Assembly (NCBI RefSeq): GCF_000025925.1
Contig: NC_014033.1
Location: 450,001-482,000, forward strand
DNA length: 32,000 nt
Direction of reading: 5' to 3'
Source: Xylanibacter ruminicola 23
Lineage (GTDB): Bacteria; Bacteroidota; Bacteroidia; Bacteroidales; Bacteroidaceae
Shown here: positions 13,224-19,402 of the stretch, piece by piece
Layout of the letters: each line of letters opens with the position of its first letter
Position numbering within the stretch: position 1 is the first letter of the stretch
Made by a program: the position numbers and the translations under genes
The notes under the pieces: model-generated
Seen by the model: the letters and a program-made list of their open reading frames with translations, nothing else
What the model was told of the DNA's origin: nothing
The model's database searches: none

Positions 13224-15578
13224 CTAAGCATACCATTTGTTGAATATCTCGCGGAGTTCCTGGGGGAGTTTGTTGTAGCAGGCCAGGGCGACGTCTTCGG
13301 GGACGGGCATGGTGGCGGCGGCGATGTTGCCGGCTATGCAGGCCATGGTGTCGGTGTCGCCACCCAGGGAGATGGCACGGATGACGGCGTCCATGAACGA
13401 TTCTGCTTCGAGGAAGCAGATGATGGATTCGGGCACGCTCTTGTCGCAGGCGGTCTCGAAAGCATAGTCAGGACGTATCTCGTCGGTGGTTCGATGGAGA
13501 TTGTAGCCGAAGGTTTGTTCGATGTAAGAACGGATATCGTCTTTTGACGAGCCTGTGCGATTGAGATAGATGGCTGCTGCTACGGCCTGGGCACCACGGA
13601 TTCCCCCAGGAGAGTTGTGGGTTACTTCGGCAGTGGTCTTGGCCAGGGCCAGACACTCGTCGAGCGAGTGGGCATACCAGGCTACAGGAGCCACACGCAT
13701 GGCGCTACCATTGCTACCGGCCCCATAAGGTGCACGATCGGAAGACTTAACCCACTCCTGGAATTTCCTACCGAAGGAGTATGTCTGATAACGGTTGGCA
13801 AAGTGACGGAAGAGGTCGATGAGCGAGTCTTTGGAGTGCTCTGGATCGTCCATGAGCCACTTGGCGATGGCGAGCGAGAGAATGGTGTCGTCGGTATAGG
13901 TCATGCTCTTCAGTACTTTCATGTCTTTCTTGCCGGCGAGCTTCTTTACTTTCTGCTTGTCTTTCTCGAGTTCGTATTTAGAGCCGAACACTTCGCCACA
14001 GATGCCACCGATGAGGCCGGTATGTGGGAGGTGTTCCGGGGCAGAACGTTCCACACGTTCGACGGTGATGCGACCATCGGCAGTCTGGGTGAAACGGAGG
14101 TATCCGCCCAGCCAGTTGATGTAGGCGCTATTGAGCAGACTGACATCGGCAGGCTCGCCATGCAGCCACTTGAGCCACTCGGCGTACCACTTGGCACCAT
14201 CGCGGTCGAGCTCCTGTTTGCGATAATGAGGTGTGGCATAGCGATGTGTGAGGAAGTCGCTGATGATGTGGTTGGGATTGTTGAGGTAGCCGTTCTCGGG
14301 GGCGATAATCTTGGCTTGTTCTTTGGCGGCTTCAGGACTATCATCGAACTGGGCCATCAGTGCGGCAGCGTCGATACTACCAAAGCGTACACCAAGCACG
14401 TCGATGCCACTGCAGATGGTATTGAGGCTGAAACGATTGGTATAGGTGGGTGTTCCAGCACTGAGTGAGAGTGGACCATAAAGTGCGAAATCGTCCTGGA
14501 AACGTACGTGGTCACGGAAGACGCGTTTGTCGATTCCGCCCAGGTTGTTGGGATCGTTAGGATTGGAGTGACGGTATTTCTCGCCAAAGTCGCTGGTGAA
14601 TATGCTCATTTTGTAGAGCAGGTCGATGCTACCTAGAGGTGTATCGATGTCGGTACGGATGATAACAACCGGCAGACGGCCTGGCAGGCGATTTAGCAGA
14701 TTGCGACATACCGACTCCTCGCGTGGAGTAACCAACAGCACAAGAGCGCAGTCGGTCTGTGGATGATTGGGGCTGCTGATGAAATTGGAAAGTGCGAGGA
14801 ATCGTCCGTGGCATTCGTCGCGGTAGTCGGAGATAACGCATGAGGCCAGTCCGGCTTCGGTCATGTTGCTCTCCATCTTGTGGGCTACAGGTTCGCCATA
14901 CGAGCCGAACAGCACGGTGAATTGTGATATCTGGCTAAGATCGGGTGGGGCAATGGTTTCATCCGCGCAGCGGTAAACGTAATTATCGGCAGAATCGGTA
15001 GATAGTGCCAGCTTGTGCGAGAAATCGTCATCGCCAGTGAAGGCCTTGTATAATAAGGCGAAGTAGGCAAAGGTGCCGTTGACGCTGATGAATCCTTTGT
15101 CGCGTTCGAAGTGGTGGCGGATAACACTATTGGGATTGGATTGCAGCATGCGTTTTATGATGGCATTCTCATCGCGAGACATGGTGAGCGCGCAGCTATG
15201 TTCCGGGTTTACGCGGATCATGCGGTTGGCGATGTACACGGCATCCTGATTCTTCAGCGAGGTGCTGACGAGCAGGAGTTTTGAGTTACGCAAGGTCTGG
15301 TCGGAGAGTGAGTTGGCAAGGTACGGTGTTACAACACGTCCCAGACCGCAGTTAGCGCCGTAGAGAAGTGCGGCATACGAGGCTGATGAATGGGCACCAC
15401 CATGCCCCATGGCGATAAGAGGGCGTTCTGGATTACTGAACAGGAACTGGCGCAGAGGTTCTGCATCGGCACGTTCGGCTTGTTCCAGATACGCGCGAGT
15501 GTTGGTGAGCAACGTACTCATGAGCGCTTTGCCGCCACGAGTCTTTGGTTGGAGTAGGTTTGTTTGTTTTGTTGTCAT
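13224..15578 (-). CDS. 784-aa fusion protein: uncharacterised N-terminal ~510 aa (possible SIS-like phosphosugar-binding modules) plus a C-terminal ADP-ribosylglycohydrolase (ARH/DraG-family) domain
   Basis: The C-terminal ~270 aa (about nt 13227-14036) carry ARH hallmarks: GLIGGICGEVFGSKYE, YTDDTILSLAIAKWL, GAGSNGSAMRVAPVAWY and SLGGDTDTMACIAGNIAAA. The N-terminal segments IAMGHGGAHSSASYAALLY and KLLLVSTSLKNQDAVYIANRM resemble SIS-domain motifs; this is a weak by-eye call. Confidence 0.8.
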   Translation of the reverse strand: MTTKQTNLLQPKTRGGKALMSTLLTNTRAYLEQAERADAEPLRQFLFSNPERPLIAMGHGGAHSSASYAALLYGANCGLGRVVTPYLANSLSDQTLRNSKLLLVSTSLKNQDAVYIANRMIRVNPEHSCALTMSRDENAIIKRMLQSNPNSVIRHHFERDKGFISVNGTFAYFALLYKAFTGDDDFSHKLALSTDSADNYVYRCADETIAPPDLSQISQFTVLFGSYGEPVAHKMESNMTEAGLASCVISDYRDECHGRFLALSNFISSPNHPQTDCALVLLVTPREESVCRNLLNRLPGRLPVVIIRTDIDTPLGSIDLLYKMSIFTSDFGEKYRHSNPNDPNNLGGIDKRVFRDHVRFQDDFALYGPLSLSAGTPTYTNRFSLNTICSGIDVLGVRFGSIDAAALMAQFDDSPEAAKEQAKIIAPENGYLNNPNHIISDFLTHRYATPHYRKQELDRDGAKWYAEWLKWLHGEPADVSLLNSAYINWLGGYLRFTQTADGRITVERVERSAPEHLPHTGLIGGICGEVFGSKYELEKDKQKVKKLAGKKDMKVLKSMTYTDDTILSLAIAKWLMDDPEHSKDSLIDLFRHFANRYQTYSFGRKFQEWVKSSDRAPYGAGSNGSAMRVAPVAWYAHSLDECLALAKTTAEVTHNSPGGIRGAQAVAAAIYLNRTGSSKDDIRSYIEQTFGYNLHRTTDEIRPDYAFETACDKSVPESIICFLEAESFMDAVIRAISLGGDTDTMACIAGNIAAATMPVPEDVALACYNKLPQELREIFNKWYA

Positions 15579-15671
15579 TCTGCTATGTGATTTGTGTTTC
15601 GCGGTTCAAATATCGGGAAAACAAATCACGATAGCCTAAAAAATATACGTATAAGAAAATTATTCAATTAT

Positions 15672-16289
15672 TCATTTATTCACATGTACAGGAAGGTGCT
15701 GGAGGAACGCGAAGGCGTCGGCGGGGAGATGGTACTCCAACTTGCCGTTGTCGCGAAGTTCCATCAGGAGTCGGCCTAAGAGGTTGGGACCAACGTATTC
15801 GTTGCCTACAAGGTTGGTGCCCCAGGAGTCGGCATCAGCTTTCTTCTTTTCGTTGCGTTTGGTTTCGTCCTCGACAATGAACAGGCCTTTGCTTCGCTCC
15901 AGTTCTTTGCGGAATGCTTCACACTGCTCATATTTCGTCTGGAGACAGAACCGCATGGCATCGACTACCATTGCCCCCCAGTCGTTACGTAACCACTCGG
16001 GATGGGATTTGTAGATAGGCTTCATGTGCATTTTTATCGCCATACCTCGCTTTGCTGCATACTCGCTTTTGATTCCTTCTTCGCCGTTGGCATTGAACTT
16101 CATCAGATGAAAGAGACGTTCGGTACAGTCGATGGTCACGCCTTCAACGATGATTGGGGCATAAAAGAAATTGCCAAAGATTCCCCATTCTTCAGTAGTC
16201 TTGCGGATGCAGGCACACTTATCAGCAGGGTAGTGCTGAATATCACTGTATTGGGGATAGTATTGTTTGATTTGATTGTGCAGGCTCAT
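15672..16289 (-). CDS. NADAR (YbiA/DUF1768-like) domain protein
   Basis: 205-aa ORF. The pattern WGIFGNFFYAPIIVEGVTIDCTERLFHLMKF ... RNDWGAMVVDAMRFCLQTKY ... FRKELERSKGLFIVED ... DSWGTNLVG ... GPNLLGRLLMELR follows the NADAR consensus as I recall it (fLSNFy..f..G..y.s.Eh.fqa.Kf, dW..v...vM...l..Kf, L..T....LvE, D..WG, G.N.LG..Lm.vR). The start lies 8 nt after the upstream ORF's stop. Confidence 0.7.
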   Translation of the reverse strand: MSLHNQIKQYYPQYSDIQHYPADKCACIRKTTEEWGIFGNFFYAPIIVEGVTIDCTERLFHLMKFNANGEEGIKSEYAAKRGMAIKMHMKPIYKSHPEWLRNDWGAMVVDAMRFCLQTKYEQCEAFRKELERSKGLFIVEDETKRNEKKKADADSWGTNLVGNEYVGPNLLGRLLMELRDNGKLEYHLPADAFAFLQHLPVHVNK

Positions 16290-18691: not shown

Positions 18692-18697
18692 CAGCCT

Positions 18698-19402
18698 ATG
18701 ATAGAAGTAATTAAGAGTCCTACCCCTGTGGTAGAGAAGAAGCAATGGACCGCCTTTCTGGCTGGTCCGATGACTGGTGCACCATCTTGGCAGGCTCAGG
18801 CCCCCAAGGTGGCTGCCCAAGTGGGTATTGAGAACCTGACACTACTGAATCCCCGAAAGACAGATCGGTTTGTGACAGGTACTTATCAGGTGAACTGGGA
18901 GACGTTCGGACTGCGTATGTGCGACGTGATACTGTTCTGGATTCCGCCTCAGGCCAGAGCGATGAAGCCATGGCGATACTATGCCATCACCACGCGACTG
19001 GAGATGGCTGAGAACCTGGCGCGTGGGCATAAGGTGATTATCGGTATCGACCCAGAGTTCAAGAATGAGAATGGCGATGATATGGCTGGTATTCACCACT
19101 TGCGACGCATGGCTAAGTATTACGGTGTGAAAGAGATACACACGTCGCTGGAGGGATGTATGAAGGAGCTGAAGGCGTGGATGGAAAAGCCCCGTGTTGT
19201 TACGGAGCATCATATACCTGGACCGGCTTTCGGACCAATGGCAAAAATGAGCAGGATGGTGCAACCCGATACCTGCCGCAACGAAACGCTGATGGAACAA
19301 TGGAACCAGCGGGTGATGCCTGACGATACGGTATATGTGGAAGGGGATTTCGGGGCGGAAGAATGGAAGCCATTCCTGAATGGTAACATAAAAATGAAGT
19401 AG
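18698..19402 (+). CDS. nucleoside 2-deoxyribosyltransferase-like protein with a short C-terminal segment resembling the first half of a metallophosphoesterase
   Basis: WTAFLAGPMTGAPSWQ ... LLNPRK ... QVNWETFGLRMCDVILFWIPP ... YAITTRLEMAENLARGHKVIIG follows the FLAG...W..NPRR..Q..WE...L..aD.i.fwf....itl.ELG...gk pattern of the Nuc_deoxyri_tr2-type family. The C-terminal TEHHIPG ... NETLMEQWNQRVMPDDTVYVEGDFG ... FLNGNIKMK resembles SDTHFGH ... WN..V.pdD.VyhLGD ... LnG...li.GNHD, but it stops before GNHD. The start lies 6 nt after the upstream stop. Confidence 0.6.
   Translation: MIEVIKSPTPVVEKKQWTAFLAGPMTGAPSWQAQAPKVAAQVGIENLTLLNPRKTDRFVTGTYQVNWETFGLRMCDVILFWIPPQARAMKPWRYYAITTRLEMAENLARGHKVIIGIDPEFKNENGDDMAGIHHLRRMAKYYGVKEIHTSLEGCMKELKAWMEKPRVVTEHHIPGPAFGPMAKMSRMVQPDTCRNETLMEQWNQRVMPDDTVYVEGDFGAEEWKPFLNGNIKMK

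Follow-up and report, generated by a model that had tools for sequence, protein, structure and literature searches.

An ART–NADAR cassette that is swapped between strains and linked to SIS, ADP-ribosylglycohydrolase and PfkB genes in Xylanibacter ruminicola 23: a candidate ADP-ribosylation conflict locus

Introduction

NADAR proteins hydrolyse N-glycosidic ADP-ribosyl-guanine and ADP-ribosyl-cytidine in DNA and RNA, and they serve as antitoxins for DarT1 and YarT (PMC11543638, PMC11125620, PMC12945103). Here we analyse a 32,000-nucleotide stretch of Xylanibacter ruminicola 23 (contig NC_014033.1, positions 450,001 to 482,000; called the window here) in which five genes, arranged as two divergent operons, encode a putative ADP-ribosyltransferase (ART), a NADAR protein, a fusion of a tandem SIS module to an ADP-ribosylglycohydrolase (ARH), a fusion of a PfkB-family kinase to a YqiA-like alpha/beta hydrolase (ABH), and a protein resembling nucleoside 2-deoxyribosyltransferases (NDT). 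The ART–NADAR pair behaves as a swappable cassette and is recurrently linked to the SIS, PfkB and ARH genes. The core pair has clear precedent; the genuinely new element is the linkage. No description of this gene combination and no characterised system of this composition was found in the literature searched, in agreement with the original prediction, which had been made from the letters of the DNA alone.

One close described system is DarT1–NADAR (DarTG1; Schuller et al. 2023, PMC11543638), a two-gene operon in which an ARTD-type H-Y-E transferase is followed by a NADAR. The window pair has the same order and the same type of transferase, and by analogy its NADAR would be expected to reverse an N-glycosidic ADP-ribosyl adduct enzymatically. 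However, the window ART, which lacks a DarT match in Pfam, is no DarT and falls in the ART-PolyVal/DUF3990 clade. The window NADAR is YbiA-type (Glu), whereas that of DarTG1 is BC4488-type (Asp), and the SIS, PfkB and ARH genes to which the window cassette is linked are missing from DarTG1.

YarT–YbiA of myxobacteria (Cihlova et al. 2024, PMC11125620) likewise combines a small stand-alone H-Y-E ART with a YbiA-type NADAR, and the toxicity of YarT is rescued only by its cognate NADAR (PMC11125620). YarT belongs to the HYD1 clade, which is apart from DUF3990 in the tree of that paper (PMC11125620), and it has a minimal fold, whereas the model of the window ART carries a helical insert of ~60 aa. 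The gene order also differs, since YbiA lies upstream of YarT and here the ART comes first, and no accessory enzymes are described for YarT–YbiA. By analogy, the window cassette would work like DarT1–NADAR and YarT–YbiA; it is not a DarTG1 system and probably not a YarT–YbiA system either.

The ART clade itself is known from ART-PolyVal domains in polyvalent proteins of phages and conjugative elements, and from DUF3990, the toxic C-terminus of a type VI secretion system (T6SS) Rhs effector with its immunity gene downstream (PMC4524185). Structure and sequence both place the window ART in this clade. Unlike those proteins, it is free-standing and chromosomal and has a dedicated NADAR, and it forms part neither of a giant injected protein nor of a secreted toxin. 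DS-32 (DefensePredictor) is a validated E. coli anti-phage system in which a phosphoribosyltransferase (DS-32A) is joined by a NADAR (DS-32B), so that it too is a two-gene system with a NADAR beside a ribosyl-transferring enzyme. Its NADAR is the best NCBIfam match of the window NADAR (model DS32_2, anti-phage NADAR, E=1e-23), at 83 bits against a cut-off of 240 bits, so that the two are related without being equivalogs; the window cluster has no phosphoribosyltransferase.

For the remaining genes, the paradigm of a kinase plus a double-SIS enzyme is FrlD/FrlB, a fructoselysine 6-kinase and a double-SIS deglycase. The cluster shares with it a PfkB kinase adjoining a double-SIS enzyme, and FrlB is among the structure matches of the SIS module. 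There is no sequence-level membership of the FrlB or FrlD families, however, and here the SIS module is fused to an ARH and the kinase to an esterase. An ARH-family protein adjoins a PfkB kinase also in yegU–yegV of E. coli, one of the partial precedents named in the original prediction, where the yegTUV operon has no settled function (PMC10819704).

Results

The ART and NADAR proteins

The model of the 202-aa protein lets us assign it with confidence to the split beta-sheet ART fold, in the ART-PolyVal/DUF3990 clade and of the H-Y-E type (H6, Y34, E63); we regard it as a putative toxin or writer. Its own Pfam matches were all sub-threshold (DUF3990, 24.0 bits against 32.2; ART-PolyVal, 21.3 against 31.2; and PARP), and a sequence search of the PDB gave no match. 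Many of its close homologues have precomputed PF13151 or PF18760 matches. An exhaustive search yielded 365 representatives at 50% clustering, which take in phage-type polyvalent giants, and a 27-sequence alignment (A1) from this search was the input for an AlphaFold (AF2) model with a pLDDT of 95.6 and a pTM of 0.90. When the model was compared with the PDB using Foldseek, nearly all of the top ~46 matches were ARTs, although the scores are weak (best E=3.4e-3, TM 0.3–0.43); the neighbours include diphtheria and cholix toxins, RES, tankyrase/PARP, PltA and NatT. Among the viral models of BFVD there are 53 matches at E<=1e-3 (TMq up to 0.68), and most of those that carry a name are ART-PolyVal. 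These matches and the sequence representatives identify relatives of the ART as effector domains of phage polyvalent proteins. In the literature searched there was no paper on the biochemistry of DUF3990 or ART-PolyVal and no member of the clade with a known substrate.

Residues H6, G7, G30, G32 and Y60 are invariant columns of the family, and Y34 and Y45 are conserved in at least 90%. E63 is present in 23 of 27 diverse members and in 56 of 59 close homologues; taken together, the motifs are kept in 56–59 of the 59. The original prediction had proposed an ART fold from its motifs and had named AlphaFold with Foldseek among its checks. Its motifs are the conserved columns of the family, and the protein does model as an ART fold and match ARTs.

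The 205-aa protein is a NADAR hydrolase, as predicted from its sequence. It is of the YbiA type, with the glutamate in an IVED strand, and a putative eraser or antitoxin. It scores 38.5 bits with the Pfam NADAR model (PF08719; cut-off 35.1). The criterion for the YbiA subfamily, a glutamate at the last-strand position, was taken from PMC11125620 and PMC11543638. The protein aligns to E. coli YbiA (PDB 2b3w, E=1.4e-8) with IVED opposite LVEH, and the [IV]VE motif is present in 55/55 NADAR homologues.

The pair as a swappable cassette

The comparison drew on 21 loci from species-representative genomes, with the ART as anchor, on 80 loci from metagenomes, with SIS–ARH as anchor, and on 12 more found through distant homologues (locus numbers carry the prefix L). 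The nearest genome match to the window is the rumen metagenome-assembled genome Prevotella sp. RUI122 (L001, 99%). ART and NADAR genes are adjacent, in this order and on the same strand, in 60/60 pairs, and every ART with downstream DNA has a NADAR. The two open reading frames (ORFs) are 8 nt apart in the window and overlap by 4 bp in distant loci. Five 50%-identity clusters (P0129, P0165, P0177, P0205, P0247) consist of single-chain ART–NADAR fusions, which stand solo in the loci checked. Separately, we noted an 830-aa protein (P0150) that joins HTH, NADAR, HAD phosphatase and ART in one chain and ties the ART clade to phosphatase chemistry in a different lineage. In distant Bacteroidales (ART identity 46–55%) the pair is found alone with differing neighbours; one such pair (L017) lies beside an AriA/PDC-M29A-like ATPase, a restriction enzyme and an IetA-like AAA protein, and another (L015) beside a methyltransferase.

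The pair behaves as a swappable cassette. Loci L032 and L086, which represent a near-identical strain, lack DNA homology to the window only over the ART–NADAR stretch of the aligned cluster region. In blastn against L032, window positions 16829–23945 are 96.6% identical and positions 11798–15951 are 89.5% identical, with no alignment between them. The replaced span runs from about codon 27 of the ART to its end and through the first ~113 codons of the NADAR. At the protein level the L032/L086 ART is 48–49% identical to that of the window, and the NADAR 55–60%. Two ART clades and three NADAR clades could be distinguished, and all six combinations occur. This reassortment argues against allele-specific binding between toxin and antitoxin and favours an antidote whose point of action is a shared chemical product.

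The SIS, ARH, PfkB, hydrolase and NDT-like domains

The 784-aa protein had originally been described as a fusion with a C-terminal ADP-ribosylglycohydrolase, and this domain is clear (PF03747, E=7.6e-33, aa 521–755). Its PDB matches are ARH3 (6g1p, E=6.9e-12) and also DraG. The NCBIfam matches to DraG and to Tri1, which protects against the ADP-ribosylating toxin Tre1, were far under the cut-offs. The metal-site motifs TDDT (residue 562) and GGDTDT (residue 739) are present in 60/61 and 57/61 homologues.

The N-terminal half of this protein, missed in the original prediction, is modelled as a tandem SIS fold of the phosphosugar-isomerase/deglycase type. Pfam gave no SIS match at E<=0.1 and the homologues have no precomputed Pfam domain. 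The AF2 model, made with 22 homologues, has a pLDDT of 84.5 and a pTM of 0.86, and Foldseek returned 140 PDB matches at E<=1e-3, the best to NagB-II (8fdb, E=1.2e-10, probability 1.0, TMt 0.66). The others include glucosamine-6-phosphate deaminases, the isomerase domain of GlmS, FrlB deglycase (8glr) and PGI. The module belongs to a small Pfam-less family of 347 proteins, whose free-standing forms of 350–380 aa adjoin PfkB. The linker between the SIS and ARH domains is absent where the two are separate genes (L102). A 471-aa tandem-SIS member (L108, 7001–8416) was seen alone in a mobile-element island with Type ISP restriction, T5orf172 and DnaB-primase genes, and no ART, NADAR or kinase was called near it.

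In the 548-aa protein the UPF0227/YqiA-like domain is above the Pfam cut-off (E=3.6e-8), with the GSSQGG motif in 20/20 homologues; its match to the PDB esterase 4fle is weak (E~0.009). The PfkB match is below the cut-off (E=1.6e-4), and the assignment, also part of the original prediction, is carried by the GAGD motif (anion hole and catalytic Asp) in 47/47 homologues and by free-standing homologues of 47–50% identity that are annotated PF00294. Weak NCBIfam matches of the whole protein are to YqiA and to ribose-1-phosphate kinase. In other loci SIS is followed by a free-standing kinase gene, and the hydrolase is paired with a separate ARH.

The 234-aa protein, predicted from the outset to be NDT-like, scores 39.9 bits with Nuc_deoxyri_tr2 (cut-off 30), and its FLAGP and T-x-x-x-E (TTRLE) motifs, with the catalytic-type Glu, are present in 30/30 homologues. 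No PDB relative was found by sequence search, and the C-terminal half has no fold match. The subfamily holds 190 proteins, and all those listed are at least 65% identical. Both the NDT-like gene and the esterase are absent from the distant operons described below; only this Prevotella group has the NDT-like gene and the esterase fusion. Judged by their intact catalytic motifs, none of the cluster enzymes looks degenerate. The general claim that every member has a fold handling NAD, ADP-ribose or ribosyl groups holds, and the tandem SIS module widens it to phosphosugars.

Linkage of the SIS, ARH and PfkB genes to the pair

The usual rumen layout is a sigma gene, the NDT-like gene (- strand) and, where present, PfkB~ABH (- strand) and a SIS~ARH variant, followed by ART and NADAR, an insert of 0–7 kb, SIS~ARH or SIS, and in some cases PfkB. 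The ART–NADAR pair is present in 41/46 informative SIS-anchored loci, and a PfkB kinase in 54/59 SIS-anchored loci. The modules recombine: SIS and ARH are fused or separate, PfkB and ABH are fused or separate, and ARH with ABH and SIS with PfkB occur as adjacent pairs. This network of fusions and adjacencies ties the SIS, ARH, PfkB and ABH domains together.

Tight same-strand ART-NADAR-SIS-PfkB(-ARH) operons with gaps of 3–56 nt and 39–50% identity were found in L102 and L105–107, of which L105–107 lie among unrelated flanks (CstA, dTDP-rhamnose genes). Loci L109 and L110 have the same genes in other orders. Uncharacterised upstream genes in L102 and L105 were considered as additional conserved components. 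They bear no relation to one another or to the ART and have no Pfam matches, and the idea was dropped. Independent contexts were considered for all of the distant loci, and this was weakened by shared AddAB-like and AAA markers, so that only L105–107 look clearly independent. The inserts between NADAR and SIS–ARH hold an IS1595 transposase, DnaB/primase modules and a MoxR–VWA pair. The original prediction named incidental adjacency of the five genes as what would speak against it; the 60/60 pairs, the one-chain fusions and the operons recurring at 39–50% identity indicate that the adjacency is not incidental.

Gene arrangement and control regions

The five ORFs, the intergenic gaps (ART/NADAR as above; NADAR/SIS–ARH, 93 nt; PfkB~hydrolase/NDT-like, 6 nt), the 138-bp divergent region and the two outward-facing TATCTTTG boxes in it are exactly as originally described (Table 1). 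The boxes lie at 16937–16944 (-) and 17011–17018 (+), 31 and 27 nt upstream of the respective start codons, and we take them to fit the Bacteroidetes -7 promoter element TAnnTTTG.

Table 1. Positions of the cluster features in the window.
Feature	Positions	Strand	Remarks
784-aa fusion ORF	13224–15578	-	leftward operon
ARH/DraG-like domain	13224–14018	-	aa 521–784 of the fusion and stop codon; PF03747
Linker of the fusion	14019–14462	-	aa 373–520; no family match; kept among fusion proteins (alignment A2)
Tandem SIS module	14463–15578	-	aa 1–~372 of the fusion; AF2 and Foldseek
NADAR/SIS–ARH spacer, 93 nt	15579–15671	-	palindrome TATACGTATA at 15644–15653; inverted repeat/hairpin 15582–15635 around a GATATTTG box
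NADAR ORF, 205 aa	15672–16289	-	leftward operon
Allelic cassette	15951–16829	.	no DNA homology to L032/L086 in blastn
ART-fold ORF, 202 aa	16298–16906	-	leftward operon
Divergent control region	16907–17044	.	outward-facing -7-type boxes TATCTTTG; palindrome TATAGGTATA at 16973–16982
PfkB~hydrolase ORF, 548 aa	17045–18691	+	rightward operon; PfkB kinase aa ~1–345 (GAGD at 286), YqiA/UPF0227-like alpha/beta hydrolase aa ~355–548 (GSSQGG at 419)
NDT-like ORF, 234 aa	18698–19402	+	rightward operon; NDT-like domain aa 19–120, PF15891
Terminator-like hairpin, 15 bp	19390–19427	+	end of rightward operon, between NDT-like and convergent sigma-70 genes

The spacer between NADAR and SIS–ARH is probably the promoter region of the SIS–ARH gene itself. 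The palindrome TATA[CG][CG]TATA is found 71–76 nt from the start codon in 44/68 SIS genes, and exact matches to it in the window are only at 15644–15653 and 16973–16982. We considered it as a shared operator specific to the cluster and ruled this out with a control set of 328 unrelated genes with intergenic upstream DNA from Prevotella loci L001–L101, 75 of which (23%) carry it at 62–100 nt. Lying ~45 nt upstream of the -7 box, it appears to be a promoter-associated element of general occurrence, and was matched to no known motif; being general, it is used here only as evidence for a promoter of SIS–ARH. For the general element, the sites noted in the window are at 2254, 11631, 11997, 15644 and 16973.

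The hairpin in the spacer (z=-3.2) lies just upstream of the SIS–ARH start codon. Its inverted repeat is kept across loci. Over 7 sequences, compensatory changes affect 4 of its 14 pairs (covariation term +0.53), a faint hint of a conserved RNA structure; the repeat could be an operator or an RNA element. No riboswitch or other known RNA element was found in the window.

Neighbouring genes

To the right of the cluster lie an RpoD-like sigma-70 gene (19434–20354), convergent to the NDT-like gene, a BspA-type LRR gene and hisC/hisD-like genes (aminotransferase and dehydrogenase, assigned from the translation alone). The sigma-70 gene adjoins the cassette directly in L004 and L098. Stand-alone NADARs are reported from within the rpsU-dnaG-rpoD operon of some E. 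coli strains (Cihlova et al. 2024, PMC11125620); the sigma-70 adjacency here may be a parallel and is possibly a coincidence.

The left flank holds a Fic+wHTH gene, a duplicated LRR lipoprotein gene, a DUF6577/AbiEii pair, an AddAB-like pair, a HAD hydrolase and an IetA-like AAA ATPase. The Fic gene, also noted originally, is at 12109–13215 and is SoFic-like. The LRR lipoprotein gene has its 5' part in two copies (11024–11563 and 11687–11929, with the first 44 aa identical), and TATCTTTG boxes recur 366 bp apart (11593/11959 and 11738/12104), indicating a direct repeat of ~366 bp. Between the LRR genes and the AddB-like gene, the DUF6577 gene and the AbiEii nucleotidyltransferase gene (confirmed at 9945–11018) span 9212–11018 with a 23-nt overlap, as an AbiE-like toxin–antitoxin pair.

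The AddAB-like pair (3032–9021) encodes a UvrD-type helicase of 1099 aa and a PD-(D/E)XK nuclease of 897 aa, and its GC content is low (35–41%). In L032 (12629–18451) and L086 the corresponding pair is only 30%/28% identical to it, and the genes around it are 99–100% identical; thus the entire helicase–nuclease pair has been allelically replaced between near-identical strains. Across the rumen loci its alleles fall into three classes (27–31%, 52–56% and 75–82%). At 390–2183 an AAA ATPase of ~600 aa resembles IetA of the Ietos defence system (E=2e-32) and is a recurrent flank. Orthologue-level copies of 59–77% identity occur in many loci and a second paralogue class (36–46%) in others; an IetA-like ATPase is also present at 11350–13161 of L017.

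Discussion

We favour a reading of the cluster as two genetically linked, separable layers, a reversible ADP-ribosylation conflict cassette and a ribosyl/phosphosugar-processing module, and we hold it at about even confidence. The pairing, the fusions, the swapping, the defence-type neighbours and the known roles of NADARs and ARTs together point to a toxin with an enzymatic antidote. Layer 1, the ART and NADAR genes, would be a conflict cassette of the toxin–antitoxin type. The ART would use NAD+ to form an N-glycosidic bond between ADP-ribose and its target, most likely a nucleobase in DNA or RNA, or possibly another N-linked acceptor. The co-translated YbiA-type NADAR would hydrolyse this bond and keep the cell alive; its protection would be enzymatic, exerted on the product, and not an allele-specific binding of the toxin. 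During attack by a phage or otherwise, the balance would tip to modification. Layer 2, comprising the tandem-SIS~ARH, the PfkB~esterase and the NDT-like protein, may follow a phosphorylate-then-isomerise/deglycate logic of the FrlD/FrlB type. Most likely it would remove other ADP-ribosyl linkages and dispose of or recycle the released ADP-ribose or ribosyl products. The original prediction had offered two competing readings, a conflict or defence module and a salvage or catabolic route; the first fits the ART–NADAR pair, and the second, as ribosyl/phosphosugar processing, fits the other three genes.

Several observations weigh against this two-layer reading. There is no experimental toxicity, target or reversal for any DUF3990/ART-PolyVal protein. 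The weak PDB structure matches of the ART include the NAD-degrading toxins RES and NatT, and because these are among its neighbours the ART could also act as an NADase. In the PADLOC-DB 2.0 models the cluster has weak matches only (PDC-M13B, 1e-4; PDC-M42A, 0.025; PDC-M42C, 4.6e-4), with none for three of the five proteins. In the PADLOC candidate PDC-M42 it is the A component that matches the ART and the C component that matches the NADAR. INPHARED, PLSDB and IMG/VR hold no phage or plasmid copies of the ART subfamily, and a phage or plasmid origin of the subfamily was dropped for this reason. Under the simplest toxin–antitoxin model, the single-chain ART–NADAR fusions would run a futile cycle. 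A simple recycling route for ADP-ribose would need a Nudix ADP-ribose pyrophosphatase, and layer 2 has none. The layers are separable in both directions: the pair occurs without layer 2 in distant Bacteroidales, and SIS/ARH with PfkB occur without the pair in 5/46 informative loci. Finally, most loci share the AddAB-like and AAA markers and represent one long-lived syntenic region in related rumen Prevotellaceae, and this common descent inflates the linkage counts.

The last points would also be expected if two unrelated modules met at a recombination or insertion hotspot, where a mobile ART–NADAR pair hitch-hikes with an independent nucleoside, amino-sugar or ribosyl catabolic operon and there is no coupling. 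We consider this unlikely, though the likeliest of the rival readings. Each part exists without the other, mobile elements have been inserted between NADAR and SIS–ARH, SIS–ARH has its own promoter-like element, the strain-level swap touches ART–NADAR alone, and the synteny of most linked loci extends to the sigma, AddAB-like and AAA markers. However, chance association at a hotspot does not readily account for the tight, diverged operons, of which L105–107 lie in foreign surroundings, for the rearranged co-occurrence in L109 and L110, for a pair that accompanies SIS in most informative loci (the 41/46 given above), or for the fact that all members are predicted to work on NAD- or ribosyl-type chemistry. 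The interpretation of the original prediction is supported in part. The ART-NADAR-SIS-PfkB(-ARH) linkage recurs; the five genes are not one indivisible unit, as the pair alone, SIS/ARH with PfkB alone and a swap limited to the pair show.

A rather improbable alternative is that the whole set is a small-molecule pathway for salvage or catabolism of a ribosyl compound in the rumen and has no part in conflict. The ART would ADP-ribosylate, or NADAR and ARH would de-ribosylate, a soluble metabolite derived from NAD or ADP-ribose, followed by phosphorylation (PfkB), isomerisation or deglycation (SIS), de-esterification (YqiA-like) and base exchange (NDT). The SIS, PfkB, NDT and esterase folds are metabolic, a kinase with a double SIS follows the FrlD/FrlB paradigm, and small-molecule N-glycosides of riboflavin metabolism are also substrates of YbiA-type NADARs (PMC11543638). 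One-chain ART–NADAR fusions suit consecutive steps better than a toxin with its antidote, and the HTH-NADAR-HAD-ART chain P0150 adds a phosphatase. On the other hand, hypervariable replacement and reassortment of ART and NADAR would be unusual for catabolic enzymes, elsewhere the ART clade occurs in phage polyvalent effectors and an Rhs toxin, the set is accompanied by no conserved transporter or regulator, and the solo pairs in L017 and L015 stand among defence genes. Least probable of all is interbacterial antagonism, with the ART as a secreted effector (T6SS cargo, for example) and NADAR and ARH as immunity enzymes, also against foreign toxins: DUF3990 is an Rhs C-terminal toxin domain (PMC4524185), the ARH domain weakly resembles Tri1 and polymorphic allele swapping is typical of effector–immunity loci, but the 202-aa ART has no trafficking domain (PAAR, Rhs or MIX), no secretion-system genes were seen in the window or the loci examined, and the ART and NADAR alleles reassort freely, unlike cognate effector–immunity pairs.

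A more far-reaching reading would join the seven enzymatic domains into one integrated write–erase–process system, in which the ART adduct, or the ADP-ribose freed from it by NADAR and ARH, feeds a dedicated route through the kinase, SIS, esterase and NDT-like enzymes. We offer this only tentatively and think it doubtful. If true, such a route could clear both enzymatic N-glycosidic and rearranged (Amadori-type) ADP-ribose adducts, or it could turn an ADP-ribosyl product into a new metabolite or signal, and it would give bacterial ADP-ribosylation conflict systems a biochemical arm not known before.

ART–NADAR pairs have been known as toxin–antitoxin or anti-phage systems only since 2023, and for DarT1 and YarT alone. 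The locus would add a third, unrelated ART clade (ART-PolyVal/DUF3990), which is widespread in phage polyvalent proteins and Rhs toxins. With a compact ART of 202 aa that is chromosomal, naturally polymorphic and accompanied by its presumed antidote, the target chemistry of this clade becomes directly testable, and the natural swap between near-identical rumen strains is a ready comparison for phage or competitor specificity. The recurrent linkage of SIS~ARH and PfkB to the pair suggests that, once ADP-ribosyl groups are removed, cells may depend on a dedicated phosphosugar chemistry.

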